A DNA stretch of 19,329 bases, taken from the IMG/VR virus record IMGVR_UViG_2802429248_000011, positions 1 to 19,329 of that record; one strand, written 5' to 3'. Both the position numbers and the translations under genes were made by a program. Shown piece after piece: positions 3,287-18,015 of this stretch (within the stretch, counting starts at the first letter, position 1; each line of letters begins with the position of its first letter). The stretch comes from a virus. Lineage: Duplodnaviria > Heunggongvirae > Uroviricota > Caudoviricetes. The notes under the pieces are model-generated. The model saw only the letters and a list, made by a program, of their open reading frames with translations, was not told where the DNA came from and ran no database searches.

Positions 3287-3309
3287 AAAAAACCCGCCTG
3301 AGCGGGTTT
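3287..3309 (-). terminator. Intrinsic terminator (strong on minus strand, weak on plus)
   Basis: AAAAAACCCGC-CTGA-GCGGGTTT hairpin. The minus strand has a T-run after the stem, so it would end the cspB-like transcript; the plus strand is followed by TAATATT. Confidence 0.55.
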
Positions 3310-4318: not shown

Positions 4319-4372
4319 GCTATATTAAAGCTTTTACTTTAAGCCCCATCGGATCACACATGGAGAGTTTTT

Positions 4373-4462
4373 ATGAATAACCCCGTCTGCCTTGATGACT
4401 GGTTGATTGGCTTTAAAAGCTTATGCTGTACTTTGGCCGTAATAGCTCTGCTAATAATATAA
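4373..4462 (+). CDS. Putative 29-aa hydrophobic peptide (speculative small protein)
   Basis: GGAGAG Shine-Dalgarno 8 nt upstream of the ATG; encodes [29 protein letters not shown]. Lies between the cspF-like gene and its terminator. Confidence 0.25.
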
Positions 4463-4611
4463 TAAGCAGACTCATTGTGTTTAGGGACATTGTACTGGAA
4501 GAAAACATTTTAAACATCAGGCAAATAACTAAGTCACCAGCTAAATAATAAGTTAACAGACATGGGTCCCGGGATGAGGTTCAACATCACCATTGCCCCA
4601 TTTAAAGCACA

Positions 4612-4637
4612 AAACCCGCTCATCAGCGGGTTTTCTA
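4612..4637 (+). terminator. Intrinsic terminator, plus strand
   Basis: AAACCCGC-TCATCA-GCGGGTTT followed by TTCTAATTTCTTT. Confidence 0.6.
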
Positions 4638-5049
4638 ATTTCTTTCTAAACATCAGATATACAAAGCCCATCATTGAGGGAATCTTATCCATATTTTTTG
4701 AAAAATGCAAGCATCACGTTGCCATCTTCATTGAAAAACCTTTATCGTGTTACTTTTATCAATTGCACTTCAGCATAGAGTTATCCCAGGCAGCACTTTA
4801 AAGACTTCTACATTACACACACCTTGTCTCCCCTTCTCGTCATATCTGCAAGACCGATATGCATGACGCAGTACATACGCTGAACTGCTTTATCCATCAG
4901 CATATTCTAGTGCTAAAGCGACTTCAGTAGCAGAAGCAAAATTCTGCTACTGTGCCAAACAGGAGTAAACGTCATTTTATGTAATGTTGATTGAGTGGTC
5001 ATAGTATCACCTCAATAACAGCTCTTCGCCCTATCATTGAAAGCATATC

Positions 5050-5058
5050 TGCTATAAT
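5050..5058 (+). promoter_or_regulatory. Extended -10 promoter element (TGcTATAAT)
   Basis: TGCTATAAT lies about 32 nt upstream of the ATG at 5090; no good -35 hexamer, consistent with an extended -10 promoter. Confidence 0.35.
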
Positions 5059-5089
5059 TAAAAAGCCACTTAACATCAGGACTTCAAAC

Positions 5090-5275
5090 ATGACTTCAAA
5101 TCAATCTGAAAACGAAATAGTTAATACTGTCAAAAAATATGCATCATGTGCTGACGATGCTTTGCAGGCAGGCAAAGAAAACGTTAAAGATAAATTTAGA
5201 AATTATCCACTGACTAGCGTGGTGGTCGCTCTAAGCATAGGGTTAACGCTTGGTTTTATTATTGGCAGAAAATAA
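5090..5275 (+). CDS. Small C-tail-anchored membrane protein (ElaB/YqjD/DUF883-like)
   Basis: 61 aa MTSNQSENEIVNTVKKYASCADDALQAGKENVKDKFRNYPLTSVVVALSIGLTLGFIIGRK. AGGA Shine-Dalgarno 8 nt upstream; C-terminal TM anchor ending in basic residues as in the DUF883 family. Confidence 0.55.
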   Translation: MTSNQSENEIVNTVKKYASCADDALQAGKENVKDKFRNYPLTSVVVALSIGLTLGFIIGRK

Positions 5276-5338
5276 TCTTAAGCCTCCCATAAGTCGTACA
5301 CAATCACATCTACCAATTAATGTTCCATTAGTAAAAAA

Positions 5339-5357
5339 CCACCTCCTGTGGAGGTGG
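5339..5357 (-). terminator. Intrinsic terminator (strong on minus strand, weak on plus)
   Basis: CCACCTCC-TGT-GGAGGTGG: perfect 8-bp stem, A6 on the plus side upstream (T6 on the minus strand after the stem), TTT on the plus side. Confidence 0.5.
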
Positions 5358-6403
5358 TTTAAGGATAGCAACAAAACACAACCTACTTTAAACGGCTATA
5401 TTCTGCTATATCTAAATAATAGGTTCTCTTTTATCATCCGGTGAAAAAGGGTTCAATGGTTGCCCCTCATCAGGACGCTCAACGGGCTCATCATCAGGCT
5501 TACGGTCATCAAAATCTGGATGTTCTGACATATTCCACCCTAGTATTTTTATGCAGGAAAGATTATTTACTCTTTCCGGTTGTCTTTTTTATTATCCTTA
5601 CCCTTACTATCCTCATTGTTTTTATTCCTGTCATGAGATTTTTCATTTGAATCACTTACATATAATGTATTCATGGGGACTCCAGTTTTTTAACAGCACA
5701 ATGCTGTATCTGTAATTATAGATGCAATTAATCATTATGGTATGTATGTTTCATGCACAAATCAGAAACGCATCTAGTGCTTTAATTAATATGGATTTTA
5801 TTGCTGTAGATTTACAAAAATTTTCATAATTAACCAGCAATATAAGACAAATATCTCATAACATGAGGGAAATCAAGCTCATTTAAAGCAATTTATAATT
5901 TTCATCCTACTATTTTCCCTACACTGCCAACACCAGTTTCGTCGCAACACTCTGACAAGACACCTATAAAATCAGTTTCGTTATCACCTTAATTTTCTTC
6001 ATGGGTAACAAACCGGTAATACATCGATAGCCTGATTGATGCACGTTACTGTTACCTCTTCCCTGCATCAGGATGGCTTCCCAAGATGATATGGTTAATC
6101 ACACTGGAACATTCACGCATAACCGTTTCCTTCATATCCTGCCGTTTTAGCATGTCTTTTCCCCTTCTTGTTAATATCAATGACTAACACAAATCTAAAA
6201 AAGCCAGCAATGTAAAAAAACTGCATTCACGGCAACCAGAATGGTTACCGTTCTGCACAAAGTTTATGTCCACAAAAAAACCACTCTGCGCGGCTTATTG
6301 ATATTTTCCACCGGTATGCATATAAGGCTCATCATTGGAAAACTCTTTGCACGTTTCCTTAGAAAATACAATCGTTATGTCGCCATCGTTCGGTGAAAAT
6401 CTT

Positions 6404-7156
6404 TTATCTTGTCACTTTTCTCAGTTGTGCTTCTGCATACGCTTCTTCCTGCCAGCACTTTGTTACCAGTTTATCAATGACGTCCGCATACCCCTTGTAC
6501 CACTGATAATCTGTCAGGTCCGGTACCAACTTCTGGACATGACGTCGTGCCAGTGTGGTCGGTAAACGACTAAACCTGTTTCCATTACAACGCCCACAAA
6601 TCTTATAAACCGGTACGCCATGAAGCCGGGTTCTTTTTTCATCCAGGACAATACCTTTACCCTTACACCCTCTGCACGCTGTGCTGACTTCGCCCTTACC
6701 ATGGCAATGCTGACATAGTTCCTTCCCCCATTCTTCCTTGATAACAGATTCCCCACTTCTGTAGTGTTTCACCACTTCGCGCAATACATTATGAAATCCC
6801 GTACCTGCACAATGTTCACAGCGAGCCTTACTTGCCGCAGACCTGGAATAATCAGCAAAGGCAAAATTCACAAGGTAAGGGATGATCTGTAACCGGGTTT
6901 CTTCACTCAATTTGTTCAATATCGGGTTATCCAGTGCCATCGCGTAATTGAGCAGACCTTCAATCGCAAACTGAGGGTTCTGAACACCAACTTTTGCCAG
7001 AAATAAGGCAAACCCAAGCGGTGCTTTCGACTGCACCATCCCCTGCGCAGCCATCACATCCGTAATTGTTAAACCACCAGAGCCTGTCGCCGGTGCGTCA
7101 TCGCTCAGTTTTGGTGATTTCGGGGAGTAATATTTCGGTAAGACTTCAAGGTTCAT
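6404..7156 (-). CDS. Q: Late-gene antiterminator Q (lambda Q family)
   Basis: Translation from ATG 7156 (GGAGA Shine-Dalgarno) begins MNLEVLPKYYSPKSPKLSDDAPATGSGGLTITDVMAAQGMVQSK..., closely paralleling the lambda Q N-terminus as recalled. Cys-rich zinc-binding pairs (CEHCAGTG, CQHCHGKG, CRGCKGKG, CGRCNGN). Longest ORF is 6404..7198. Confidence 0.88.
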   Translation of the reverse strand: MNLEVLPKYYSPKSPKLSDDAPATGSGGLTITDVMAAQGMVQSKAPLGFALFLAKVGVQNPQFAIEGLLNYAMALDNPILNKLSEETRLQIIPYLVNFAFADYSRSAASKARCEHCAGTGFHNVLREVVKHYRSGESVIKEEWGKELCQHCHGKGEVSTACRGCKGKGIVLDEKRTRLHGVPVYKICGRCNGNRFSRLPTTLARRHVQKLVPDLTDYQWYKGYADVIDKLVTKCWQEEAYAEAQLRKVTR

Positions 7157-7169
7157 GCTCGTTCTCCAC

Positions 7170-8165
7170 TTACGCCAGCACGCCAATTGCCAGCGCACGA
7201 TCGATAAAACGAAATATCAGCTTCAGCTGGGAGCCATACTTCTCTTCAAATGCCACGGTATCCGCATGCAGCTCGTCGTGATGCTTTCTGCACAAAGGCA
7301 ACACAAAGAGGTCATGCGCTTTTGTAGCCATTCCACCCTGACCGTGGCCTATCAGGTGGTGGGGATCATCAGCAGGCTTTCCACAACATGCACACGGCTG
7401 TGTCTTAACCCAGCGCGTGTACTTTTCGTTAACCCAGCGGCGACGTTTGGGGCGTAACATAAAAGACTCCGGCGACTCCGGATCCACTTTCAGCGCCAGC
7501 ACCTTTTTCGCTTTATCCTGGATAATGCTGGTGGCAGGAACCGAAGGCACAAGGTCACTTTCCCGGGTGACAGACGGCACAACAGGCTTCGGTAATCTCA
7601 GTGCCTTACGGGCTGCACTTTCCGGTAAGGCATCCGCCAGGTCATTACGAATCAGCCACCAGCACAGTTCCGGCATTGTCACAACGTGACTATCATCAAA
7701 ACCGAGATCCCGACGCACAACAGACAACACCCAACGGGCACAGTTATCCGTTGCCATTGATTCCAGCCGTTCCGTGAACTGATCGCGCAGCTGGTTATCG
7801 CAGTGCCAGCACAGACGGATTGCGCCCGGGGCGTGTCGCATTGTGGTCATGTTCTCGCTGTGCCAGTCGGAATGAGGCCACTGGCAGCCCTTTTCACGAA
7901 GTAACCAGCTTTCAAGACATTCCACGCCACCAGCACGACGGATCACTGCCTCATTGCGGAACACGGCCCGAACGGCAGGATCATCCGCCAGCGGTTGTGA
8001 TGCCGCCGGAACGGCACCACTGGCGAAAGATGAATAACGCTCCGGCTCAGGCTCCAGCAGGACACGCCCCTGCATAAACAGGGGCATCAGCTCTGAACCT
8101 GGCCTGAACAATACGATCCCCATACGCGGGGCAATTTCAGGGGTCAGCAGTGCTCTCACGGTCAC
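7170..8165 (-). CDS. DUF968-like protein with C-terminal HNH/zinc-finger-like Cys/His motif; start codon uncertain
   Basis: 331-aa ORF. C-terminal ...TQPCACCGKPADDPHHLIGHGQGGMATKAHDLFVLPLCRKHHDELH... resembles the DUF968 family found just upstream of Q in E. coli lambdoid prophages (memory-based). Several candidate starts. Confidence 0.7.
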   Translation of the reverse strand: MTVRALLTPEIAPRMGIVLFRPGSELMPLFMQGRVLLEPEPERYSSFASGAVPAASQPLADDPAVRAVFRNEAVIRRAGGVECLESWLLREKGCQWPHSDWHSENMTTMRHAPGAIRLCWHCDNQLRDQFTERLESMATDNCARWVLSVVRRDLGFDDSHVVTMPELCWWLIRNDLADALPESAARKALRLPKPVVPSVTRESDLVPSVPATSIIQDKAKKVLALKVDPESPESFMLRPKRRRWVNEKYTRWVKTQPCACCGKPADDPHHLIGHGQGGMATKAHDLFVLPLCRKHHDELHADTVAFEEKYGSQLKLIFRFIDRALAIGVLA

Positions 8166-8211
8166 CTCAGCGAACGGTATTGCATGAACGCAGAAGAAAA
8201 AAATTCAGCCA

Positions 8212-8469
8212 TCACGCAGTAAACTCCTTCACCAGCGTTTCAAACTGGCTTACCTGGCCTTCCAGTTCCGCCACGCAATCCACCAGCTCATCCACCGCCT
8301 TTTGTGTGCGGTGTTTTGCCTGCAGCAGATCACGCAGCGCCGGAGTAAGCTGCTTGCAGAGCGTATCCTTTGCCACGCTCGTTTTTTCCATCTGTTCAGC
8401 ACAACGAAGCATCTCCTGTGCCTGCCGACGAAGTTGTTCCGGTGAAACAGTGGTTGTTCTGTTATTCAA
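8212..8469 (-). CDS. Hypothetical small coiled-coil protein (85 aa)
   Basis: ORF MNNRTTTVSPEQLRRQAQEMLRCAEQMEK... whose TTG start overlaps the DnaB-like stop (TTGA), suggesting translational coupling; no recognised family. Confidence 0.45.
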   Translation of the reverse strand: MNNRTTTVSPEQLRRQAQEMLRCAEQMEKTSVAKDTLCKQLTPALRDLLQAKHRTQKAVDELVDCVAELEGQVSQFETLVKEFTA

Positions 8470-9866
8470 AATAAACGCTCCGTTTTACTGCCCGACATGC
8501 GTTTATTGCTGTATCTGCGCGGATTGCCCGGAGTCATGGGTGTGGAAAGAACCCGGGCACTCTCCTGGTCCACAGGCAGAAAATGTCCGTTATAAAAACG
8601 CCGGTAAATCGTCCCCAGAGAACCGTTACGTTGTTTCGTGATATTGATTTCTGCGATGCCCCTGGCCTGCGTATCCGGGTTGTACACTTCATCCCTGTAA
8701 AGCATCAGAATGATGTCTGCATCCGCCTCTATTTCTCCGGAATTTTTCAGGTCCGAGTTCATGGGGCGTTTATTGGGTCTGGATTCCACGCCGCGGGAGA
8801 GCTGGCTAAGAGCAATCAGCGGAAAACCGCCGGATTTTGCCAGGCTTTTAAGTCCCTTTGAGATTTCCCCCACCGCAAGGTCGTGACGCCCCGTGCTGCG
8901 GGTTTTAATCAGGCCGAGGTAATCGACCACCACCAGCGCCGTTTCCGGGTGTTTCATCCGGTGGTGCTTCGTGGTTGCACATATCTCATCAATGGTCAGG
9001 TTTGCCTGGTCCACCATCCAGATATTACGCCCCGTCATTCGTCCCACGCCCTGCGAGAAACGCGCCCAGTCTTCATCTTCAAAACGGGCAACAGACTTAA
9101 GACGTGATACCGGCATTCCTCCAGCCGCAGACACCATACGTTCACCAATCTGGATGTTCGACATCTCCATGGTGAACAGAAGCACACCATGCCCCTGCTC
9201 AGTCACCTTGTCGATGATGTCCAGCGCAAGTTCGGTTTTCCCCATCGAAGGACGGGCGGCAATGAATACCAGGTCTCCGGGCTCCATACCGCCCGTTTTT
9301 GCGTCCAGTTCATCAATACCGGTCATCAGCGCCCTGGATTTCTCCAGTCCCTGATTGCGGCATTCAACACGGTCGACCACTTCCGGAAGGACATCATCAA
9401 TGTGAACCGGCTGAATGACGCCCTTTCCTGTCGACAGTGTGACCATCATGTTCTGCGCATCCTTCAGAGCATCCTCGGCTGCTTCACAGGTATGCGCATC
9501 ACGTAAATTCTGTAATGCTTCAGTCAGTGTTTTTTCTGCATCGCGCAGTGCGGCATTTCGCCGCAGCGCTGCAACATAGTGCTCCAGTGAAGACTTCACC
9601 CAGGTTTTACGCCCGGTGTCGGTAATCACCGGGGCAAGTTCCGGCATCTCATTGCACAGCAGCACGGGGTCAATGACGCCGGATACGCGAGCCTGTCTGC
9701 AAATCCCCGCGTAAATATCCCTGTACTGACGCACGAAAAAGACATCCGCCGGAAGCGTGGCCAGAATATCCATCACTTCCGGATCAGCCCCACGCAGAAA
9801 AAACGCGCCAATCACGGCACCTTCCAGGTCATCGTTACGCCATGCCGGATTTGTCGTTTTTGTCAT
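8466..9866 (-). CDS. Replicative DNA helicase, DnaB-like
   Basis: 466 aa from ATG 9866 (ATGA overlap with the upstream DnaC-like stop). Walker A ...FIAARPSMGKTELAL... and DnaB C-terminal RecA-like domain motifs. Confidence 0.9.
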   Translation of the reverse strand: MTKTTNPAWRNDDLEGAVIGAFFLRGADPEVMDILATLPADVFFVRQYRDIYAGICRQARVSGVIDPVLLCNEMPELAPVITDTGRKTWVKSSLEHYVAALRRNAALRDAEKTLTEALQNLRDAHTCEAAEDALKDAQNMMVTLSTGKGVIQPVHIDDVLPEVVDRVECRNQGLEKSRALMTGIDELDAKTGGMEPGDLVFIAARPSMGKTELALDIIDKVTEQGHGVLLFTMEMSNIQIGERMVSAAGGMPVSRLKSVARFEDEDWARFSQGVGRMTGRNIWMVDQANLTIDEICATTKHHRMKHPETALVVVDYLGLIKTRSTGRHDLAVGEISKGLKSLAKSGGFPLIALSQLSRGVESRPNKRPMNSDLKNSGEIEADADIILMLYRDEVYNPDTQARGIAEINITKQRNGSLGTIYRRFYNGHFLPVDQESARVLSTPMTPGNPRRYSNKRMSGSKTERLF

Positions 9867-10753
9867 GCTGCCACACCTCTGATATGCGCACGGTAGCTTT
9901 CCCAACCAAACACCAGGCAGTTACACCCACCATCAGTAACGCGATCCACAATCCGTTCACCAATGGATTCTTTAAGCTGTTCAAACGTCAGGTTGCTGAT
10001 CAAAATTGTCGGTAAAACGCTTTCGTAACGCGCATTTATGATTTCCTGCAGGATGGTTATCTCTGTAGGCGTGCCGAACTGCACACCAACCTCATCAATG
10101 ATCAGCAGGTTCAGTGAGGCGAAATGAGCGAGAACTTCATCCTCGGTACGCTCTGAATTGTGGCGCCAGGTATTTTTCACAGCGCGGGTCAGTCGCATAA
10201 CATCCGTAATTTCGACGGTCGCCTGGTGGTGGCGAATAATATTTTTTGCCATTGATACAGCCAGATGATTTTTCCCGGTACCACAATTGCCAATCATGAC
10301 CATGCTGGTACCCGCAGCAAGACACTTCTCCCATGAACCGGCATAGCGCCGACAAGCCTCAAGATTTCTCTGTGCGTCAGCATTCACCGCCTGATAATTC
10401 TCAAACTCGCAGTTCTGGAAGCGGCGGGCAATACCAGCCCTGTCGAGTAATTCATGAACTTTCAGGATGCGTAACGCCTCCTGTACCTGATCCAGCTCAT
10501 TCGCAATGCAGGTCGGGCAACCAGACACCCGTTTGATGGTTTCCCCACGAACATCTGGCCCTTTCAACACCAGACGTGTGTATTTCCCGTGTTTCTCACA
10601 CTCAGCAGTATCCTCGCTTGTCAGCCAGTGTTCACAGCGCCACGGACGCTTCCCGACACGGGCAAACTGCATCTCCTCCTCCAGTTCCGCCCTGCGGTTG
10701 AGCAATTGCGCTTTGTCGTGTTGTGCGTAGTGTTTTTTTAACTGTTCAAACAT
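9863..10753 (-). CDS. Helicase loader, DnaC/IstB-like AAA+ ATPase
   Basis: 296 aa. Walker A GNCGTGKNHLA and Walker B LLIIDEVG; GAGGTGA Shine-Dalgarno before ATG 10753. Confidence 0.88.
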   Translation of the reverse strand: MFEQLKKHYAQHDKAQLLNRRAELEEEMQFARVGKRPWRCEHWLTSEDTAECEKHGKYTRLVLKGPDVRGETIKRVSGCPTCIANELDQVQEALRILKVHELLDRAGIARRFQNCEFENYQAVNADAQRNLEACRRYAGSWEKCLAAGTSMVMIGNCGTGKNHLAVSMAKNIIRHHQATVEITDVMRLTRAVKNTWRHNSERTEDEVLAHFASLNLLIIDEVGVQFGTPTEITILQEIINARYESVLPTILISNLTFEQLKESIGERIVDRVTDGGCNCLVFGWESYRAHIRGVAA

Positions 10754-10772
10754 TGTTCATCACCTCGAAAAA

Positions 10773-11582
10773 TCACCAGTTGAAGTTCGTTGAACCGTAG
10801 TCCTGCTCACTGAATCCCGAGATCGGGAGGCCGGTAGTTCGCCCACCTCCGGGAGCGGCTGGCTGTTGCCAAGATTCCTCGAAGTGACGATCGGGTCCAA
10901 AGAACGTCGCAGCCTGCTTCACGAACTGTGTGCCGATATTTCCGGTAGCTCGTACCCAGGCGGCATACCGCTTCACGCCATCAAGCATGGTCTCCGGTTT
11001 TATTCCCTCCCTGATACGGGCTTTCCAGGCTTTGAAGGCTGCTGACTTGGAATTGCCACCGGCACGTTTGGGATATTCCTGCCAGGCCTGTTCAAATTCC
11101 GGTGAATATTCCTGTCGGGCAGAACGCGCTGGTGCAGACGCGTCAGCGGATGCGCCAATAGTTGATTCATTGACTGGTTCTTTGACTGGTTCAAAAGAGT
11201 GACTGGTTCTGGGTGAATCTCCTGCACTACCCCCTAGTGCAACTCCTGCACCACCTGGTGAATTTGTTGCACTAGGTAGTGAATTATTTGCACTACCACC
11301 TAGTGAATCTTTTGCACCATCAAGACGAAGAAGATAAATATTGCTCGAGTTGCCTTTTTCACCTTTCCGGGAAACTTTTTTTACCAGTCCCGATTCACAA
11401 AGAGCCGTAATATGATTCATCACAGAACGTTTGCTAATCTCGCACTGATCAGCAATATGCTGATAGCTGGGCCAGCACTCGCCCTGATCGCTGGCATTAT
11501 CAGCCAGCTTAATCAGAACCAGTTTTCGCAATGGATTCCCCACACGAATTTTCATCGCTTTAACCATCAGCTCCATGCTCAT
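10773..11582 (-). CDS. Replication initiator (lambda O-like; N-terminal winged-HTH, low-complexity linker, C-terminal domain)
   Basis: 269 aa. GGGAGG Shine-Dalgarno before ATG 11582. Direct repeats with internal dyad symmetry (iterons) lie in the linker-coding part of the gene, as in lambda O/ori. Confidence 0.8.
   Translation of the reverse strand: MSMELMVKAMKIRVGNPLRKLVLIKLADNASDQGECWPSYQHIADQCEISKRSVMNHITALCESGLVKKVSRKGEKGNSSNIYLLRLDGAKDSLGGSANNSLPSATNSPGGAGVALGGSAGDSPRTSHSFEPVKEPVNESTIGASADASAPARSARQEYSPEFEQAWQEYPKRAGGNSKSAAFKAWKARIREGIKPETMLDGVKRYAAWVRATGNIGTQFVKQAATFFGPDRHFEESWQQPAAPGGGRTTGLPISGFSEQDYGSTNFNW
11223..11310. repeat. Origin-of-replication iterons (four ~20-22 bp repeats with internal dyad symmetry) inside the initiator gene
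   Basis: TGCACTACCCCCTAGTGCAA / TGCACCACCTGGTGAATT / TGCACTAGGTAGTGAATT / TGCACTACCACCTAGTGAAT in tandem. Adjacent at 11165-11215 are three copies of TGACTGGTTC. Confidence 0.7.
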
Positions 11583-11803
11583 AGAGCACCTCCCAGGCGT
11601 TTAAACATTTTTCCGGACTGAAACGCCATCAACGGATAGCTAATGGTGTAGTTACGCCCCAGTAATTCACACACAACTTTCTGGCTTTCGGTGCTGACCA
11701 GGCAAACCCGCAGAACGTGACCGTTGCTGGTGGCGAACCACTGCCCCACACGGGGGCAACGGTTGTATCGGTGATACAGGGAATTAACGATGTAGCGGAT
11801 CAT
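11579..11803 (-). CDS. Hypothetical protein (74 aa)
   Basis: GGAGGTG Shine-Dalgarno; ATGA overlaps with both the upstream ORF and the initiator gene downstream; no recognised family. Confidence 0.55.
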   Translation of the reverse strand: MIRYIVNSLYHRYNRCPRVGQWFATSNGHVLRVCLVSTESQKVVCELLGRNYTISYPLMAFQSGKMFKRLGGAL

Positions 11804-11994
11804 GGACGCACCTCCGCCGTAGTTACGTATTTAACCGGGCTACCTTTCATTGAGATGGTTTCACACATCTCTGCCGCTTTCAGTTCCGCCGTTTTTCTGG
11901 ATTTATAGCGACGGTGCCAGACAGATACATCCGTGCGAACTGATACATCGTTTCTGTATTCCGTAGTGGAGATGATGATTTCGTAACTAATCAT
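11800..11994 (-). CDS. Hypothetical protein (64 aa)
   Basis: GGGAGG Shine-Dalgarno 7 nt before ATG 11994, which overlaps the upstream stop (ATGA); MISYEIIISTTEYRNDVSVRTDVSVWHRRYKSRKTAELKAAEM... Confidence 0.55.
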   Translation of the reverse strand: MISYEIIISTTEYRNDVSVRTDVSVWHRRYKSRKTAELKAAEMCETISMKGSPVKYVTTAEVRP

Positions 11995-12653
11995 GGGCGT
12001 ACCTCCCATTGATTACGGCGAAAAGCAGTGTGATTCAGGCTGGTTTCAGCCTCATGGAATGCTCCAATGCAGCTCTCGTAGTACCGCATTGTGCGTAGAC
12101 TTAACCCAAGCTGAAGCATCATCAGGCCATCAAGGGTGATGTAATAACCACGCAGGGAGTCACCATAGATGTGGTAAGTACCCGGTATGAAGTTGCGGGT
12201 AAAAAATTCGCGCGAGCAGTTCAGATACTCGATTTTGTCGACGATGTTCTGGTGCATGCGCTTAAAGTGGCAGGCAACATGCAGGGAGAAAATAACAGCT
12301 TTGCCGTTGACGACTTCGATTTTGAGGAATGGGGAAGTTGGGACTGTAGCCATGATGGCAGCCTCCTTGATCGGTGAAAAACTTCCACCACCGGAGCTGC
12401 GAAACTCATGGGTGGTGAACTGAACAGGGTTCGCAGTACCGGCGATCAAGGAAACCGGCGAGCCTTTCGGCTCCCCTGCCCAGCCCACCATAATTCTGGC
12501 GTGCGTGAGCGCAGACGATAAAAAAGACGCTGGCGCGTCGTATATCGCCTTGATCAATTCCGGGCTGCGACCCCCGGCACCCGCTTTATAAGGTGCTGGA
12601 ACAGTGTAACGTCCCGAAATTACAGAATCAATATTTTGGCTTGAAACATTCAT
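11991..12653 (-). CDS. Hypothetical protein with Gly/Ser/Pro/Ala-rich N-terminal region and folded C-terminal domain; start codon uncertain (open frame extends to 12887; strong internal Shine-Dalgarno + ATG at 12353)
   Basis: 897-nt open frame. The first in-frame ATG (12653) lacks a Shine-Dalgarno; an internal ATG at 12353 has AAGGAGG 8 nt upstream. C-terminal domain ...YYITLDGLMMLQLGLSLRTMRYYESCIGAF... is not confidently assignable. Confidence 0.5.
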   Translation of the reverse strand: MNVSSQNIDSVISGRYTVPAPYKAGAGGRSPELIKAIYDAPASFLSSALTHARIMVGWAGEPKGSPVSLIAGTANPVQFTTHEFRSSGGGSFSPIKEAAIMATVPTSPFLKIEVVNGKAVIFSLHVACHFKRMHQNIVDKIEYLNCSREFFTRNFIPGTYHIYGDSLRGYYITLDGLMMLQLGLSLRTMRYYESCIGAFHEAETSLNHTAFRRNQWEVRP

Positions 12654-12677
12654 ATGCTTACTGGTATTTTTACTAAC

Positions 12678-12767
12678 GCAAATGTTCTTGGATGTTACTG
12701 GCTTACTTCTTTGTGAGGTTGCCTTTACTAACGTTGAGCGAGCCGGGTCACTACCCGGCTTTTTTTC
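12678..12767 (+). ncRNA. Candidate oop-like antisense small RNA (about 90 nt)
   Basis: Promoter-like TTGAAA (12641-12646), 18-bp spacer, TG-extended -10 TGgTATTTT (12662-12670), and a strong plus-strand terminator ending at 12767. Antisense to the Rha-2 stop and the region upstream of the next gene. Confidence 0.3.
12741..12767 (+). terminator. Intrinsic terminator oriented against the pR-type operon (antisense terminator)
   Basis: Plus strand AGCCGGGT-CACT-ACCCGGCT followed by T7; on the minus strand the hairpin is preceded by A7 and has no U-tract. Confidence 0.6.
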
Positions 12768-13473
12768 ACCGCTGCCAACCAATAACCTGAAATAACCCCA
12801 TTTTCGGGTGATACCAGCGAGTCCCTCGCGGTTCTGCTTCCGCCATAACCTGATGGAAAGCAGCCATAAACGGTTCCACGGCAACAATTGCGCGACGTGA
12901 CAACAATCCGTCCGGCGTCATGAACTCATGGGTGTCTGTAGGAATTTGATAAGCGTTCACCAGATTGCGGCATTTATCATCTGACAAACCGGTTTTCGCT
13001 TTCAGTTGGCGATATCCGGCATAGCCCTCACGAATGTTGCCCTTTTTGATTTGCTCAACTGTTTCGGCAACGTGGCTGACTTTTTCTTCCACCTGAGTGA
13101 TCCGTTTCTGCTGACGAACAGCTTCAAGAGCCATCGCGGCAACCATTTCGATTTCGCTCATTGGCTTACGGATCTGTTCTTCCAGTTCGCGCCAGCGATC
13201 TACTAGGCGGGCTGTGAATTCGGGACAAAGCTGTGCGACGACAATGATGCTGTCGCGCTTACCTTGTTCGCCTTCGAAGATGTAAGCACCTACATTTCGT
13301 TTTAATCCTAAGTTGTTGATTATTTCGAAATTCGCCATTGGCGCACTTCGAATAATCCCCTTATCCATGAGCCTTTCAATGCTGCGCTTAACATCTTTGT
13401 GTTGGCTGCCCACCAACTCTGCGATTTCAAGGCTGGTCATGGATGCTTTGCCGTTAAAAATTGCGGTGTTCAT
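12766..13473 (-). CDS. Rha-family phage regulatory protein (antirepressor-like)
   Basis: 235 aa. N-terminal ...MTSLEIAELVGSQHKDVKRSIERLMDKG... fits the Rha domain pattern; its ATG overlaps the cro-like stop (ATGA). Confidence 0.78.
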   Translation of the reverse strand: MNTAIFNGKASMTSLEIAELVGSQHKDVKRSIERLMDKGIIRSAPMANFEIINNLGLKRNVGAYIFEGEQGKRDSIIVVAQLCPEFTARLVDRWRELEEQIRKPMSEIEMVAAMALEAVRQQKRITQVEEKVSHVAETVEQIKKGNIREGYAGYRQLKAKTGLSDDKCRNLVNAYQIPTDTHEFMTPDGLLSRRAIVAVEPFMAAFHQVMAEAEPRGTRWYHPKMGLFQVIGWQR

Positions 13474-13733
13474 TGTTGGTCTCCTGTGGGCTTGTCATCC
13501 TCTGTGTGCGCTAAGCTTGGATGTGGAAAAAGCTCTGGTAGGTCTGGACGAAATTCATACGCTTGGATCTTTCCGTCGACAGCTGCAACCAATAACGGCA
13601 CAAATTCTGGTGAAATCTTGTTCTTGCAGTTCAACCAATCGCAGACTGTTGACTGGGCCTTTCCGCATCGCTTGGCTAAGGCTTGCTGACTTCCAAGAAT
13701 CTCAATAGCTTTCTCTATGGCTTTATGTTTCAT
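13470..13733 (-). CDS. cro: Cro-like repressor (Cro/YdaS-family HTH)
   Basis: 87 aa from ATG 13733 (GGAG Shine-Dalgarno): MKHKAIEKAIEILGSQQALAKRCGKAQSTVCDWLNCKNKISPEFVPLLVAAVDG.... Divergent from the CI gene. Longest ORF extends to 13784. Confidence 0.8.
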   Translation of the reverse strand: MKHKAIEKAIEILGSQQALAKRCGKAQSTVCDWLNCKNKISPEFVPLLVAAVDGKIQAYEFRPDLPELFPHPSLAHTEDDKPTGDQQ

Positions 13734-13755
13734 AATCGCATCTCCTATTGAACGC

Positions 13756-13784
13756 ATAATAACAACAGGAAAAGCGATATTCAA
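13756..13784 (-). promoter_or_regulatory. pR-type promoter for the cro-like operon
   Basis: On the minus strand, TTGAAT (-35), a 17-bp spacer and TATTAT (-10), about 20 nt upstream of the cro-like Shine-Dalgarno. Confidence 0.5.
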
Positions 13785-13803
13785 CGTTAAACCTAGAACA
13801 TTT

Positions 13804-13817
13804 ATCGGAAAGCCGAT
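13804..13817. promoter_or_regulatory. Palindromic operator candidate in oR (ATCGGAAAGCCGAT); a weaker related site at 13765-13778
   Basis: 14-bp dyad matching two sites beside the pL-type promoter (ATCGATAAACCGAT, ATCGGTAAACCTAT); located between divergent cI and cro start regions. Confidence 0.45.
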
Positions 13818-13852
13818 AGACTAGCCAAGATAGAGAGGGGAGGAAAATCGCA

Positions 13853-14545
13853 ATGACATTTTCAGAACGACTTGATTTAGCTATGCGCAACGCAAAATTT
13901 ACGCAAGGTAGGCTGGCCAAAGAAGTGGGTATGGCTCAGTCCAGTGTCAATCAACTACTTAACAAAGCCAACGGTTCCAGAAAAACAGTCGAAATAGCAA
14001 AAGTTTTGGGCGTTAACCCGGAATGGCTCGCATCGGGTGTTGGCCCAATGGAAATCGTGACCTCTGCAGACTCACACCAAATACGTAACATTTCTGAAGA
14101 TTGGGTTACTGATTCGTATGTCGTGGATGTTTTAGACATCAGATATAGTTGCGGACCTGGCAGTTATAACTCTGATTTTCCTGACATTGTCAGATCTATA
14201 GCGATAGAACCAGGATACGCATCAAGAGTTTTTGGCGGCAGACCAGCATCAGCAATCAAAGCAATAAACGCCCACGGCGACAGTATGAAAGGCACAATAG
14301 ACCCTGAAGACTTGGTATTTGTAGATGTATCAGTTCGCACATTTAATGGTGATGGTATATACGCCTTTACATACTCTGGAACATCGCACATCAAAAGACT
14401 TCAAAAAATCAAAGATACTCTAACGGTGATATCTGACAACCCAGCTTACAAGGATTGGGCTATCGAACCGGAAGACTTTGAACAACTTCACATTGACGGA
14501 AAAGTAATTGTCAGTTGGCCTATGACACTACACCGTTTTGCATAA
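13853..14545 (+). CDS. cI: CI-type prophage repressor (N-terminal HTH, C-terminal LexA-like S24 autopeptidase domain)
   Basis: 230 aa. N-terminal HTH (..QGRLAKEVGMAQSSVNQLL..) and C-terminal S24 motifs (..HGDSMKGTIDPEDLVFVD.. and ..IKRLQK..). GGAGG Shine-Dalgarno; divergent from cro. Confidence 0.9.
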   Translation: MTFSERLDLAMRNAKFTQGRLAKEVGMAQSSVNQLLNKANGSRKTVEIAKVLGVNPEWLASGVGPMEIVTSADSHQIRNISEDWVTDSYVVDVLDIRYSCGPGSYNSDFPDIVRSIAIEPGYASRVFGGRPASAIKAINAHGDSMKGTIDPEDLVFVDVSVRTFNGDGIYAFTYSGTSHIKRLQKIKDTLTVISDNPAYKDWAIEPEDFEQLHIDGKVIVSWPMTLHRFA

Positions 14546-14563
14546 GCAAAAATCATTTAACCC

Positions 14564-14589
14564 GCCCACTCTTAAGTGGGCTTTTTTTT
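14564..14589 (+). terminator. Intrinsic terminator after the repressor gene
   Basis: GCCCACT-CTTA-AGTGGGC followed by T8. Confidence 0.75.
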
Positions 14590-14596
14590 GGAAAAA

Positions 14597-14638
14597 ATCG
14601 ATAAACCGATTGACAGGCGAAATCGGTAAACCTATTAT
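14597..14638 (+). promoter_or_regulatory. pL-type early-left promoter with two operator dyads
   Basis: Consensus TTGACA (14610-14615), 17-bp spacer, TATTAT (14633-14638). Dyads ATCGATAAACCGAT (14597-14610) and ATCGGTAAACCTAT (14622-14635) overlap the -35 and the spacer/-10. Confidence 0.6.
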
Positions 14639-14687
14639 TATGGCATAGGTATCGAACTCACCAAAGCAATTATAGAGGATGAGAAAA

Positions 14688-15185
14688 ATGTCATCGTATA
14701 TGGGGTTACCAACAAATCAGCACGATGCTCTTGAGAATATTCAGCTCTTAGTCGGGGCTGGTGCACTACTGTATAGCAGCAATAACCCTGAGTTAATTGA
14801 ACTTGCCAGCTCCATCCTGGCTGTAACTCAAAAATATAGCCTCACAGCGTCGCGTTTATGCAAACAAAATTTAGCTATTAATTCCCAGAATCGGATTAGC
14901 ACTCAACGCGAAGCCTGCGGCTTAACAACCGCCGAACTCGCCAGGCTGCTCGATCTCGATGAAGAAATTATCATCCAGTGGGAGAGCGGAGAGTATGAAC
15001 CAACCATCAGCATGCTTATCCCACTGGCAAATATTCTTGGCTGCGATCCGATGTGGCTGTTAACTGGCGAGGTTACTCCTCCGGAGCAACCAAAAAGTGA
15101 GGAGCAGCAACACCATGACGCATCTCAACAAGTTTGCTCCTTATCTCGCGAAGCTCTTCTACGGAAGAACCAATACCAATGGTGA
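14688..15185 (+). CDS. HTH (XRE-family) protein, first gene of the early-left operon; N-terminal domain of unknown function
   Basis: 165 aa from ATG 14688 (AGAGGA Shine-Dalgarno). XRE-type HTH in residues ~95-150 (..CGLTTAELARLLDLDEEIIIQWESGEYEPTISMLIPLANILGCDPMWLLTG..). Occupies the position of N in lambda but is not N-like. Confidence 0.7.
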   Translation: MSSYMGLPTNQHDALENIQLLVGAGALLYSSNNPELIELASSILAVTQKYSLTASRLCKQNLAINSQNRISTQREACGLTTAELARLLDLDEEIIIQWESGEYEPTISMLIPLANILGCDPMWLLTGEVTPPEQPKSEEQQHHDASQQVCSLSREALLRKNQYQW

Positions 15186-15313
15186 CATAATCACCGCTTC
15201 GCCCCTCAAGGTACATGCGAACATTTTTATCAATCATTGCGGAAACAGTCTCAATATGAAAACACTTCTGAGACTCGCTATATAGCAGAACATATAAGTC
15301 AGCTGAGGAAGCC

Positions 15314-15679
15314 GTGAAAAAGTTCGAAAACATAACTGCTCTCCATGTTGATGACTTTGATTATACAAACCCGGAACTTCTCCCGGAGGTTGTAAAGGCA
15401 ATAGATGTTGCCGATATAGTGATTAGAGGAAAGAGAATCGTCAAAAACAGGCTCGCATGCACTTCAGGAGCAATGACAGAAACAACCTCACAACAAGATG
15501 ATTATGAAGGCATTTGTCTGGAGCCGGACTCATTTGCGGTAAATGTTTATCATTTATTGCATGCAACACAGGTATTACATATGTCAAGTAATCACGAAAC
15601 AAAAACACTTGGCAGCGAAATTCTGAATTTTGCATGTGAATATGCAAAAGCTGCTGCCGAAAAAGAATTAGCACAATAA
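15314..15679 (+). CDS. Hypothetical protein (121 aa)
   Basis: GTG start with GAGGAA upstream; balanced composition; the antisense frames over its body are Leu/His/Cys-rich and look non-coding. Confidence 0.5.
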   Translation: MKKFENITALHVDDFDYTNPELLPEVVKAIDVADIVIRGKRIVKNRLACTSGAMTETTSQQDDYEGICLEPDSFAVNVYHLLHATQVLHMSSNHETKTLGSEILNFACEYAKAAAEKELAQ

Positions 15680-15875
15680 CAATAAATATTCCCTGAATGT
15701 TTATTACGGTTTTATCGCCGGGGATTGTTGCAACCTTTATTCGCAGGTGATTATGTTATGACTTTCCTGAAACATAAGGCATCGTATAAAACTGCCTGCC
15801 TCATTGTACAACATGGAGATTCTTATCTTCATATAGCCAACCTGTATTTGCGCAAAGCATATGGGAGATAAGTCA

Positions 15876-16064
15876 ATGGAAGAAAAACAACAAAACATAA
15901 CACATAAAAAAGTAAGAGTGTTGCTAACCATTGAAAATGGGAAGGTAATTCACTCAAAACATCTGTTGGATAATGAATTTGTTGGCTGCATGGATACATT
16001 TTTGTTGGTGGTAAAAAGAGCGGGTTACACTATTATTCCACCAGCAAAGGAGCAAACATTATGA
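15876..16064 (+). CDS. Hypothetical protein (62 aa)
   Basis: GGGAG Shine-Dalgarno before ATG 15876; stop overlaps the next ATG (ATGA). Confidence 0.5.
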   Translation: MEEKQQNITHKKVRVLLTIENGKVIHSKHLLDNEFVGCMDTFLLVVKRAGYTIIPPAKEQTL

Positions 16065-16642
16065 ATCATTCAGAGTTCCGACCAGAAGTTACGCCACACG
16101 GTATAAAAATTGGCAATACAACCATAGATTATGCCGAGGCCGTACAGCGACTTAATGATGGTGAATACGATAATCCAAATTCTCAAGGTTTAAGAATTAT
16201 GCAGTGTATTGCTGAAGCCGATGATGCCGGATTACTGGGACGATTTTCAGTCGATATGAAAGTTGCTCAATGGCGATGGCTGTATGTGACAACATTTATA
16301 AATGAAGAGGAAGACAAGAACGGCACCATTGATATCCCTAACGATAATGGAACTACAGATCGCGCAGTTATTTACAAGGGTAAACATGGTTGCCTGAGTA
16401 TCTACCCAGGGCCACTTCGCATTGCCCTGCAAAACCATGTCGAATGGAGATTCATTGAAAAATATGGCGAAGCTGAAGGCATGGGGCGAGTTCTGTTTCT
16501 CTATCAAAAAATGCTCATCGCAGATCCTGATAATGGCTTCATTGTCTCTGCTATGGGACGAGAAGGGCTTGAACTTCTTCTGGATGAAATGATTCACGAT
16601 CTGAATACTCATGGTATGCCAGAAACACCATTGGCACATTAA
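16061..16642 (+). CDS. Hypothetical protein (193 aa), acidic
   Basis: AGGAG Shine-Dalgarno 8 nt upstream; ATGA coupling to the upstream ORF; no recognised motif. Confidence 0.7.
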   Translation: MNHSEFRPEVTPHGIKIGNTTIDYAEAVQRLNDGEYDNPNSQGLRIMQCIAEADDAGLLGRFSVDMKVAQWRWLYVTTFINEEEDKNGTIDIPNDNGTTDRAVIYKGKHGCLSIYPGPLRIALQNHVEWRFIEKYGEAEGMGRVLFLYQKMLIADPDNGFIVSAMGREGLELLLDEMIHDLNTHGMPETPLAH

Positions 16643-16644
16643 AC

Positions 16645-16926
16645 ATGTCAAATCAGAATAAAATTAATGTATTTCAGGTTGAATCAAAACATAAAACACC
16701 TGTGATAAAACACGTTCGCCGCCATACACTCATCTATACGCCAGAAGAGTTTATGGCAATTCCAATGATAAAGAAGTTTATTCGTGATAATCCCGATCAC
16801 ATTGCTATAGATAAACATAACGGAGAAATAATGTTATCACGCGAACTTGCCGAAATTTACTGTAACGTGAATAACGGTAAAAAATTGAAAAAGGCAATCC
16901 GAAAAAAATCAGGAGTAACAAAATGA
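16645..16926 (+). CDS. Hypothetical protein (93 aa) with Lys-rich C-terminal tail
   Basis: Starts 2 nt after the upstream stop and overlaps the next start (ATGA); C-terminus ..NNGKKLKKAIRKKSGVTK. Confidence 0.62.
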   Translation: MSNQNKINVFQVESKHKTPVIKHVRRHTLIYTPEEFMAIPMIKKFIRDNPDHIAIDKHNGEIMLSRELAEIYCNVNNGKKLKKAIRKKSGVTK

Positions 16927-17291
16927 ATAGCATCGAGACACAATGTTCCTCATCTGAAGTTATGAACTATGACCCGAATCTGACGTTGTACGGACGCATG
17001 GCAAAACAAACTGTTCTATTAACTTTCGGGCTATGGGAATACCGCGAAACATTCGAAGTTTCTGTCGGCGGCAATCTGACCGGACTGGATGTTATCAGTT
17101 GCGCCATTGAAAGCCTGTACGCAACGCTGCCTTATGAAGAAGTCGAGGATGAGCGCGATATCATAGCCACCATTAATATCGGCGGCATGGAATGCAAGGA
17201 TGAAAACCTGAACGGAGAACTCTGGCTTGCCGGGATGCTTATCTCGGCAGAAATCATCAGTATTGAACCCGCTACAAACATACGACTCTGA
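16923..17291 (+). CDS. Hypothetical strongly acidic protein (122 aa)
   Basis: AGGAG upstream; about 20 acidic versus about 6 basic residues (..LPYEEVEDERDIIATINIGGMECKDENLNGE..). Confidence 0.62.
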   Translation: MNSIETQCSSSEVMNYDPNLTLYGRMAKQTVLLTFGLWEYRETFEVSVGGNLTGLDVISCAIESLYATLPYEEVEDERDIIATINIGGMECKDENLNGELWLAGMLISAEIISIEPATNIRL

Positions 17292-17322
17292 AGTTCTCAC
17301 AACTCAGGGAGCAGGAGAAAAA

Positions 17323-17565
17323 ATGTTCGCTTTGATTAATCAGGGGCAACTGTATACCGATAGTGCTGGCTACCCGATAAAAATTATTCGCTGCATAAAC
17401 AACACTGTGTTGTACAGAAGAATGGATGGGCGAACACAGTCGGTAAAAATAAACGATTTTAATGAACTGTTTGAACGAATCGATCACCAGGAATACCGAC
17501 AAATTCTGGCAGAAACAGAGCAGGAAGCTCATCTGAAAAAATTACGGGTCATGAAAAGGAAGTAA
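17323..17565 (+). CDS. Small protein resembling the DUF4222 family common next to xis/int in lambdoid prophages
   Basis: 80 aa from ATG 17323 (AGGAG Shine-Dalgarno): MFALINQGQLYTDSAGYPIKIIRCINNTVLYRRMDGRTQSVKINDFNELFERI...; family assignment from memory. Confidence 0.55.
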   Translation: MFALINQGQLYTDSAGYPIKIIRCINNTVLYRRMDGRTQSVKINDFNELFERIDHQEYRQILAETEQEAHLKKLRVMKRK

Positions 17566-17568
17566 AGA

Positions 17569-17715
17569 ATGAATAAAGCGTTTGAGCTATGGGTACGCCA
17601 GCGTTACGGCAATCGCTATGACCTGACGCGAGATGTTGACGGTTTCCACTGTCGTGAAATTGTGAAACGAATGTTTGAAGTGTGGTGTTACTGTCGTGGA
17701 CTGAATGTTGTGTGA
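17569..17715 (+). CDS. Hypothetical small protein (48 aa)
   Basis: AGGAAG Shine-Dalgarno 6 nt upstream; MNKAFELWVRQRYGNRYDLTRDVDGFHCREIVKRMFEVWCYCRGLNVV; its stop overlaps the xis Shine-Dalgarno. Confidence 0.45.
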   Translation: MNKAFELWVRQRYGNRYDLTRDVDGFHCREIVKRMFEVWCYCRGLNVV

Positions 17716-17723
17716 GGTAATGC

Positions 17724-17960
17724 ATGGGCAATGTGATTCAACTGGCTCCCAATGAATGGGTTTGTGAAAGCGTTCTTATCGCAATTACCGGGCTCAAACC
17801 AGGCACAATTCTTCGGGCCCGGAAAGAATGCTGGATGGTTGGAAGAGAGTATATTCACGTATCACCAGACGGTAATCCAAAGCCTTCCAGCGAATGTATG
17901 TATAACAGAAAAGCAATAGATGCCTGGGTCGCTTCAATGAAAAACAAACAACCTGGGTGA
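17724..17960 (+). CDS. xis: Excisionase-like protein (DUF1233-type putative Xis)
   Basis: 78 aa MGNVIQLAPNEWVCESVLIAITGLKPGTILRARKECWMVGREYIHVSPDG... directly upstream of the integrase; GAGGT Shine-Dalgarno. Confidence 0.7.
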   Translation: MGNVIQLAPNEWVCESVLIAITGLKPGTILRARKECWMVGREYIHVSPDGNPKPSSECMYNRKAIDAWVASMKNKQPG

Positions 17961-18015
17961 TTTAATGCCATGAAATATGTAAGCTCGTATCGCTCTTGGG
18001 CGTCTGGAGGTATGA

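Follow-up and report, generated by a model that had tools for sequence, protein, structure and literature searches.

The 19,329-nucleotide stretch of viral DNA analysed here (IMG/VR record IMGVR_UViG_2802429248_000011, positions 1 to 19,329), referred to as the window, is a lambdoid prophage of Escherichia coli. Comparison with related phages indicates that positions 11157–11317 are probably the origin from which this prophage replicates. They lie within its own initiator gene, where the linker is encoded, and a mechanism for this origin is proposed below. Two repeat families lie in this segment: an array of dyad-symmetric repeats, which behave as iterons, and directly beside it a block of short GAACCAGTCA direct repeats, called the second element in the following. 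Our reading is that of a lambda-style origin placed in an initiator of a different family (HTH_36), with the second element as a putative sequence-specific site of unwinding or helicase loading. This element is not an accessory site: the comparisons show it to be the most conserved DNA of the whole module and a constant component of origins in this initiator superfamily. The 1-kb region round the repeats is 99.7% identical to E. coli 377323_2f (CP039404), in which the matching region is part of a prophage adjoining yecN/cmoA, and sequence like it is present in 1230 of 5426 complete E. coli genomes. The features needed for the argument are as follows.

10773–11582, minus strand: replication initiator gene, 269 amino acids (open reading frame (ORF) list, translation, Pfam HTH_36 with E=2.6e-11, PHROG 270)
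11319–11582, minus strand: region coding for the winged-helix DNA-binding N-domain, amino acids 1–88 (homologue comparison, AlphaFold2)
11303–11317, no strand assigned: iteron 1, first in gene direction, GTGAATCTTTTGCAC on the plus strand (pattern search)
11279–11293, no strand assigned: iteron 2, GTGAATTATTTGCAC (pattern search)
11258–11272, no strand assigned: iteron 3, GTGAATTTGTTGCAC (pattern search)
11237–11251, no strand assigned: iteron 4, GTGCAACTCCTGCAC, a perfect 5-N5-5 palindrome (pattern search)
11213–11227, no strand assigned: iteron 5, GTGAATCTCCTGCAC, separated only by CC from the conserved element (pattern search, homologue comparison)
11171–11212, minus strand: conserved GAACCAGTCA repeat element, with plus-strand copies at 11200–11209, 11183–11192 and 11171–11180 (repeat and homologue searches)
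11157–11170, minus strand: fourth, degenerate copy of the 12-bp repeat, which reads AT GAATCAACTATT in gene direction and forms the A/T-richer tail of the element (sequence, A+T profile)

Both repeat families fall in codons 89–140 of the initiator gene. AlphaFold2, run with 32 homologues, gave a confident winged helix for amino acids 1–88 (predicted local distance difference test (pLDDT) 79–93), a region predicted to be disordered at amino acids 91–156 (pLDDT <50) and a helical C-domain at about amino acids 157–225, so that the repeats lie inside the predicted linker between the two domains. A preliminary description made from the sequence alone had already placed the two families here, within the linker-coding part of the gene and in the manner of lambda ori. 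The repeat search recovered both of them, and the order of N-domain coding part, iterons, second element and C-domain coding part is the same as in lambda.

The first family was detected by the repeat search as four 23-nt copies at 11229–11317 with a spacing of 21, 21 and 24 bp. It is best phased as five 15-bp units, GTGMA-N5-TGCAC, starting at 11213, 11237, 11258, 11279 and 11303, with a spacing of 24/21/21/24 bp. This pattern is matched 6 times, versus 0.15 matches expected, and none of 200 shuffled sequences reached 6; the sixth match arises because the palindromic unit at 11237 is counted on both strands. No copy of the pattern was detected elsewhere in the 19.3-kb window. The four palindromes around CACTA..TAGTG that had been described as the repeat units do exist, three as CACTA..TAGTG and one as CACCA..TGGTG, with centres of 2 or 5 bp, but they are better understood as the junctions of neighbouring units. 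We prefer the 5-N5-5 phase because it uses all ten half-sites at constant spacing, whereas the junction phase leaves an unpaired half-site at each end of the array. The 5-N5-5 phase is also the one conserved in other members of the family.

Homologous loci were gathered in three ways, namely by protein search, by search with the element, and by seeded scans made without it. A locus scan with the N-domain alignment gave near-identical relatives only and served for the statistics of copy number, not of diversity; two further seeded scans provided element-independent samples. The N-domains were grouped into 29 clusters at 75% identity. The iteron sets of related prophages had been named in the preliminary description as a check on the origin, and the layout is retained in them while the repeat sequence is not. 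In all 29 clusters, 3–8 dyad-symmetric (5-N5-5) units, each about 15 bp long and spaced 21–24 bp, are located between the part coding for the winged helix and the second element. At least 10 different repeat sequences occur among them, for example GTGCA..TTCAC, TGCCA..TGGCA (the Klebsiella type, with an N5 centre), GGGCAG..CTGCCC (the Xuzhou21 type, with an N3 centre), TAGGCC..AGCAC, GTGAC..GTCAC and GTGTA..TACAC.

The iteron sequence changes together with the protein. Initiator residues 1–47 are almost invariant across the family, while residues 48–66, the region of the recognition helix, vary with iteron type. In pairwise comparisons of the 29 clusters, the identity of the recognition helix (amino acids 48–66) correlated with the identity of the last iteron (Spearman rho 0.43; reached in 0 of 2000 Mantel permutations). 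No such correlation was observed for amino acids 1–47 (rho -0.03) or for the wing (rho 0.03). Covariation of the repeat with the recognition helix is what is expected for iterons, and it supports the view that the first family consists of origin iterons, i.e. putative initiator-binding sites. The copy number changes by whole units. Close relatives of the window usually have five units at 24/21/21/24, and the range is 4 to 8. The upper end is found in phage cdtI (locus L003, 1501–2385), where a 66-bp in-frame duplication of three iterons adds 22 residues, giving 8 units and an initiator of 294 amino acids.

The second family comprises three exact copies of TGACTGGTTC on the plus strand, at 11171, 11183 and 11200, within 39 bp; the repeat search also reads it as TGACTGGTTC(T). 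The copies are 12 and 17 bp apart from start to start, and the spacing of 11–13 bp given previously has to be corrected. Beyond these three copies, the whole window contains no exact GACTGGTTC. On the gene strand the block reads CC AGAACCAGTCAC TCTTTT GAACCAGTCA AA GAACCAGTCA AT GAATCAACTATT. Its core across the family corresponds to positions 11176–11212 and has the form AGAACCAGTCAC-TCTTTT-GAACCAGTCA-nn-GAACC. The copies of the window are translated in two reading frames, AGA ACC AGT CAC versus GAA CCA GTC A, and encode RTSH and EPV(K/N), respectively. Each GAACCAGTCA repeat holds a half-iteron-like GTCA(C). The element together with the next ~20 bp (~50 bp in all) has an A+T content of 60–64%, compared with 40% in the last iteron. 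Over 29 representatives, the element ranks within the least stable ~2% (median) of 30-bp windows in the surrounding +/-400 bp.

The second element is conserved at the level of nucleotides. Seven diverse homologues, identified with no search other than that by protein, were compared; they come from E. coli, Salmonella, Klebsiella and two Vibrio phages, and their N-domains are 48–57% identical (tblastn). They share AGA ACC AGT CAC TCT TT(T/A) GAA CCA GTC A with identical codons, the sole exception being AGT changed to TAT. The only common substitution within the element, TTT to TTA, changes the amino acid. Among the invariant amino-acid columns that are degenerate at the codon level in these protein-search homologues, 8 of 9 columns of the element show just one codon, versus 1 of 32 in the N-domain (Fisher p = 8e-7).

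The element is also widespread. Its exact 22-mer GAACCAGTCACTCTTTNGAACC occurs in at least 120 IMG/VR contigs and in 54 species-representative genomes. Represented genera are, among others, Xenorhabdus, Photorhabdus, Erwinia, Providencia, Proteus, Citrobacter, Vibrio, Photobacterium, Shewanella, Pseudomonas, Haemophilus and Microbulbifer, and the search of species genomes returned it only from Gammaproteobacteria, including Enterobacterales. In 145 of 149 contexts the 22-mer is read in the same frame, at least 100 codons (103–191) into the initiator ORF. Of the four exceptions, three lack an intact ORF upstream in this frame, and in one of these (L177) a 1-bp insertion visibly causes a frameshift; the remaining one (L135) is in frame but preceded by 90 codons. 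All four keep the iteron layout. None of the contexts examined placed the element outside an initiator gene. The consensus over the 29 clusters is cacCcAGAACCAGTCACTCTTTtGAACCAGTCAatGAACC, with three GAACC cores at +1, +18 and +30, and it starts 2 bp (or 1 bp) after the last iteron, regardless of iteron type, host or C-terminal domain.

In a sample that was independent of the element, seeded with N-domain peptides, 43 of 55 distinct loci had at most two mismatches to the 28-mer. Of the remainder, six had 6–7 mismatches and six were of the divergent type of phage mEp044. Over all comparisons, the variants of the element include AGT to TAT, a concerted GAATCTATCA type and a GAACCGTMA type. In the concerted type (IMG/VR loci of the L351–L357 type), which is among those with 6–7 mismatches, both copies carry the same two-base change, GAATCTATCAC..GAACCTATCA, read as GGAATCTATCAC TCTTTT GAACCTATCA. 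Such a concerted change suggests that one reader recognises both copies, but as the N-terminal 47 residues of this type are canonical, it speaks against amino acids 1–47 as that reader.

The N-domain of mEp044 itself is 55% identical to that of the window initiator. This phage keeps the motif as CCT AACCAGTCA TATAT AACCAGTAA in a different reading frame, where it encodes the unrelated peptide HPNQSYITSKEN. Because the DNA motif is retained in another reading frame, selection on the peptide is excluded. These comparisons indicate that the second element is constrained as DNA, not as a peptide. A sister subfamily, the Pseudomonas MD8/TC7 type, carries GAACCGTMA repeats at 11–12 bp in this position: AGAACCGTAATAGAACC, exact in 52 of 69 distinct sequences, precedes further GAACC(A/G)TCA units at the same interval, amounting to 3–5 copies in all. 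Recognisable variants of the element are likewise present in relatives from Morganella and Acinetobacter, and relatives with iterons of the window type have 1 to 5 exact GAACCAGTCA copies. The element does not depend on what comes after it. At least four unrelated C-domains occur behind one and the same N-module and element, and the genes downstream encode DnaC and DnaB, a primase-helicase, a P-like protein or no replication protein at all.

An unrelated N-domain family shares the C-domain of the window and has direct repeats at the equivalent position. It is represented by Stx1_499 and PPyecE_EH1910, in which four 12-bp direct repeats, ACAGAGAATACA, are found there. In the Stx1a phage Stx1_499 (L004:1300–1650) and in PPyecE_EH1910 (L005), the C-domain is 84–92% identical to that of the window (10773–11156, from TIGASADASAP on), while the N-domain has no Pfam match. 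They have palindromes of their own, TTTCCCGAAATGGGG and CCCGTTTTCGGGAAA, followed by the ACAGAGAATACA repeats just before the shared module. In the window, homology with this C-domain module of a different initiator family starts directly after the degenerate fourth repeat at 11157–11170. The arrangement resembles a third kind of origin that follows the same design. Since even an unrelated N-domain family has 12-bp direct repeats at this place, short direct repeats between iterons and C-module look like a general design.

We propose the following mechanism for the origin. As suggested by the covariation, dimers of the winged-helix N-domain of the initiator would bind the five 15-bp dyad iterons, which are about two helical turns apart, and the bound iterons would build a nucleoprotein complex resembling the O-some. 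This complex might then destabilise the adjoining GAACCAGTCA direct repeats, with their period of ~12 bp, their locally higher A/T content and their distance of 2 bp from the last iteron. The GAACCAGTCA block would serve as a sequence-specific element for unwinding and loading, comparable to the 13-mers of oriC or RK2 oriV, and would probably be held single-stranded or distorted, either by an N-domain portion that does not vary or by a conserved replisome protein of the host. Amino acids 1–47 of the initiator are an attractive candidate for the reader. The variable C-domain would recruit the helicase system, which, judging from the gene order, would be the DnaC-like loader and the DnaB-like helicase of the phage itself. 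The early operon would be transcribed across the origin, as in lambda.

We suggest, only tentatively, a wider interpretation. The GAACC(A)GTCA block could be a previously undescribed, sequence-specific origin element common to the winged-helix initiators of phages, a very large superfamily with at least 5,700 clustered proteins across Gammaproteobacteria. It would be read, probably as single-stranded DNA, by the invariant part of the initiator or by a universal replisome component, and would position unwinding and helicase loading. If this is true, the constant element would allow phages to swap the modules for iteron specificity and helicase recruitment on either side while origin function is kept. 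It would then be a phage counterpart of the DnaA-trio or of the 13-mer elements, written inside a coding sequence.

Several points weigh against the proposed origin and its mechanism. Origin function, initiator binding and unwinding all rest on comparative inference. The element is only modestly A/T-rich (~57% A+T in the 28-mer) and has the lowest stability of all 30-bp windows in only 3 of the 29 representatives, which means that it is no classical AT-rich unwinding element. The start-to-start distance of 17 bp from the first copy to the second does not match a simple helical repeat. Variants occur that combine canonical N-terminal residues with 6–7 changes in the element, which weakens the case for amino acids 1–47 as its reader. 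Finally, the element variants of different subfamilies are similar enough to leave room for a conserved host factor.

The last point leads to the alternative that survives best. The iterons could mark the origin while the GAACCAGTCA block is the binding site of a conserved host protein such as IHF, Fis, DnaA, DnaB or primase, which would be the second factor suggested in the preliminary description. A partner common to all hosts would fit the independence of the element from iteron type, C-domain type and the following helicase or loader genes, as well as its restriction to Gammaproteobacteria, and direct repeats at about one helical turn would suit a protein sitting on one face of the helix. 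However, our own inspection revealed no good IHF consensus, and no DnaA box (at most one mismatch) was detected within 11150–11350, in or beside the origin. Window-wide, DnaA boxes are near chance (29, versus a shuffle mean of 20.8). Moreover, canonical and divergent elements coexist within one host genus and follow the initiator subfamily, as in Pseudomonas prophages versus MD8/TC7 and in E. coli with mEp044, and the 12-bp repeats at this position are different ones in the unrelated family of initiators. We regard a host-protein site as unlikely, albeit worth keeping in mind.

A second alternative treats the conserved block mainly as a homology patch, or 'linker sequence', for recombination of N-terminal specificity modules with different C-terminal, helicase-recruiting modules in lambdoid phages, with no direct role in initiation. 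It is true that the element lies exactly at the module boundary, that one N-module plus element is combined with at least four C-domains, that homology with the Stx1_499/PPyecE initiators, which have another N-domain, begins directly after it, and that SfV and the window diverge right behind it. Second-order selection for recombination is nevertheless unlikely to keep 28–37 bp invariant over a range from Haemophilus to Pseudomonas when synonymous sites close by have reached saturation. The observed joints are located after the element and not inside it, a patch needs neither tandem repeats nor a copy number of 1–5, and the sister subfamily keeps the repeat architecture with another sequence. 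This alternative therefore seems very improbable to us. We judge that the position at the boundary makes the element a natural recombination joint as a by-product, and that this is not the reason for its conservation.

Even less credit goes to the idea that the palindromic repeats are autoregulatory operators or a transcriptional roadblock for a helix-turn-helix (HTH) protein, with the origin elsewhere in the prophage. The annotation of the protein merely as 'helix-turn-helix domain-containing protein' and the dyad-symmetric 15-bp sites, typical of operators, would be in line with it. Five to eight tandem sites in the middle of a coding sequence with no promoter-like site nearby do not form an operator layout (a search of 10600–11800 yielded no promoters or terminators), the gene heads a module of initiator, loader and helicase, the layout matches lambda ori, and the window has no further iteron copy. 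The weakest alternative, that the repeats are a by-product of a repetitive low-complexity peptide linker selected as protein and have no role as DNA, draws on the short peptide repeats (DSLGGSA/NNSLPSA/TNSPGGA and EPVK/EPVN, G/S/A/N/P-rich heptads) of the predicted disordered linker and on first-family spacings that are all multiples of 3, but it is largely refuted by the retention of the motif in other reading frames, as in mEp044, by the frozen synonymous sites of the element (8/9 versus 1/32 columns) and by the covariation of iteron and recognition helix, and the peptides differ between repeats that keep their DNA half-sites and would not require the dyad symmetry of the units.

Further candidates were considered and rejected. 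A programmed -1 frameshift at UCU UUU G, with an immediate UGA, is not a canonical heptamer, the UUA variants of Vibrio lose re-pairing, and mEp044 has the motif in another frame without the TCTTTT spacer. The Rac prophage oriJ was dismissed as a characterised relative, as its protein YdaU is of the DUF1376 family. The class of iteron-plasmid origins, with a Rep_3-type Rep and DnaA boxes, shares with the window only the direct repeats beside iterons, and no match to the Rep_3 profile was found in the initiator. A scan of 10500–12100 against Rfam (E<=1) identified no known RNA.

The closest known layout is that of lambda ori. There, iterons and an adjacent AT-rich tract are located in the middle of gene O, and additional iterons lengthen the O protein; six copies in place of four, as distinguished among lambda and Stx-phage iterons, correspond to 13 more residues (PMC7466680). 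As in lambda and in the six-iteron origins of the Stx phages 933W and P27, the proposed origin of the window is located mid-gene, in the segment for the linker between the domains of the initiator. Its dyad repeats are arranged in tandem about two helical turns apart (in lambda, four 18-bp sites at 20–24 bp) and are followed in gene direction by a second element, which is where unwinding takes place in lambda. As in the lambda and Stx origins, the number of iterons varies between relatives and adds residues to the protein, and transcription of the early operon crosses the origin. In contrast to lambda, the initiator does not belong to Phage_rep_O and has no detectable sequence similarity to lambda O, and the iteron sequence is unrelated. 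Lambda has an A-rich tract of ~40 bp, whereas the flank in the window consists of moderately A/T-rich GAACCAGTCA direct repeats whose sequence is conserved across bacterial orders, and lambda P is replaced by a DnaC-like loader and a phage DnaB.

For the direct repeats, the closest functional analogy is provided by bacterial and plasmid origins. In oriC and RK2, the 13-mers of the unwinding element are sequence-specific single-strand targets of the initiators, DnaA and TrfA, and point mutations in them block opening (PMC4980987). Because one strand is bound specifically there, the sequence and not just the A/T content matters. Like oriC and RK2 oriV (with DnaA, TrfA or RepE), the window has short direct repeats, ~12–13 nt in 3–4 copies, directly beside the double-stranded initiator sites. 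Unlike in those origins, the repeat is 10 bp long in a 12- or 17-bp period, has ~50% G+C, is located inside a coding sequence and is not accompanied by DnaA boxes.

The Bacillus phage SPP1 has its oriL inside gene 38 and a G38P/G39P/G40P module of initiator, loader and DnaB-type helicase. The window resembles it in having a three-gene module with initiator-binding repeats inside the initiator's own gene, and differs in that the proteins and repeats are unrelated and the SPP1 host is Gram-positive. We know of no equivalent DNA element conserved across families in SPP1.

The gene had been called O-like in the preliminary description, which is appropriate for its role and layout but not for its family. 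The N-terminal domain scores 43.6 bits against Pfam HTH_36 (PF13730; cut-off 25), above the curated threshold, and the protein matches PHROG 270, 'replication initiation protein', with E=1e-87. The Phage_rep_O profile (PF04492) had no match in it at E<=0.01, while lambda O itself scores 5.7e-36. Direct comparison with lambda O was likewise unconvincing: the best BLASTP hit had E 0.019 over 30 residues in the wrong domain, and hhalign gave a probability of 0.6%. A published HHpred analysis claims an HTH_36 fold in lambda O (PMC5509034), which was not reproduced here. Similarity to DnaD_N, at 24.5 bits, stays under the cut-off of 27, and a Pfam scan of the C-terminal half detected no family, so that the DnaD/DnaB_2 C-terminal domain that marks DnaD-like initiators and loaders was not found. 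Foldseek with the predicted model returned generic winged-helix folds only, none at E<=1e-3, among them the DnaD N-domain (2v79, E=0.03), and a sequence search for relatives of solved structure found none. The homologues with PF13730 comprise 5711 clustered proteins, all named 'helix-turn-helix domain-containing protein'.

The initiator gene is the first of three replication genes on the minus strand and is followed by these two.

9863–10753, minus strand: gene for a DnaC-like (IstB-like AAA+) helicase loader, directly downstream of the initiator gene (domain and PHROG matches)
8466–9905, minus strand: gene for a replicative helicase of the DnaB family, third in the replication module (domain matches)

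Some described phages have closely similar initiators. Those of the Eru6 representative Stx2a_WGPS2, SfV (orf39), cdtI and many Stx2c phages are 74–84% identical to that of the window and have the same iterons and element. The HTH_36-type 'HTH proteins' of the non-lambdoid ('Eru') Stx phages and the replication proteins of SfV (orf39) and mEp460 belong to this same protein family. For the phage that represents the 'Eru6' type, which is named in the literature on Stx phages (PMC8951638), the identity to the window initiator is 81%. The two papers on 'Eru' Stx phages (PMC8044961, PMC8951638) describe these proteins by their domain content and give no origin, and the words 'iteron' and 'repeats' are absent from PMC8044961.

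Iteron origins inside initiator genes are textbook knowledge for lambdoid phages. The iterons are thus a feature of an ordinary kind, and the conserved element is, as far as could be checked, new. In the searchable literature we found no published origin or conserved element for the HTH_36 initiator family, although a prior description is possible, as most papers in subscription journals were outside this search. The same literature contained no replication or binding experiment for the family. The matches listed for the motif string were all unrelated papers on eukaryotes, and searching for iterons or origins in such phages returned only work on the lambda-O type.

The finding gives a concrete, testable origin to a very common uncharacterised replication module, present in many Stx2-converting, SfV-like, Klebsiella, Vibrio and Pseudomonas phages. 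Conservation at the nucleotide level inside a coding region, across bacterial orders and within diverged surroundings, probably marks the site of origin opening or helicase loading. The iteron types, at least ten and paired with distinct recognition helices, are a ready specificity table for experiments, and with the element as a simple marker, origins of this kind could be located in prophages and phage-plasmids.

A few observations concern individual relatives. SfV (L002), cdtI (L003) and Vibrio D186 (L008) have the same initiator type with no helicase or loader gene behind it; in SfV and cdtI the next gene is dam/PAPS-reductase-like. These three presumably rely on the host DnaB/DnaC, whereas the window phage brings its own. 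In phage mEp515 (L273, 1201–2514), an 84-amino-acid ORF resembling the initiator N-domain ends in a stop codon and is followed by a separate ORF of 351 amino acids without linker repeats, whose tail matches the C-terminus of the mEp044 initiator. It could be a split or degenerate initiator and is uninformative.

Matches in plasmid databases were phage-like circular records of 33–54 kb (E. coli, Salmonella, Shewanella, Microbulbifer, Pasteurella) or mislabelled chromosomes, and not true plasmid replicons. One such record, the 41,452-bp circular 'plasmid' pKPTCM2-4 of Klebsiella pneumoniae (L272), is a lambdoid phage genome with the same module of initiator, loader and helicase and without a typed plasmid replicon; it lends weak support to replication from this type of origin. 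Such 33–54 kb 'plasmids' may be phage-plasmids or captured replicating phage DNA.

Within the window, a direct repeat, ATATTCCTGCCAGGC / ATATTCCTGTCGGGC, is found at 11073–11087 and 11106–11120, 33 bp apart, in the region coding for the C-domain. It encodes the peptide repeat QEY..WQEY, and the same pair occurs in Stx1_499. The ORFs at 11991–12887 and 12766–13473 (minus strand) are adjacent, overlap in part and carry Rha domains, one of them also an Ash domain. In a near-identical E. coli prophage there are separate 'ash family' and 'Rha family' genes with boundaries that differ from those of the window ORFs, and the start of the long 298-amino-acid ORF of the window may be extended upstream.

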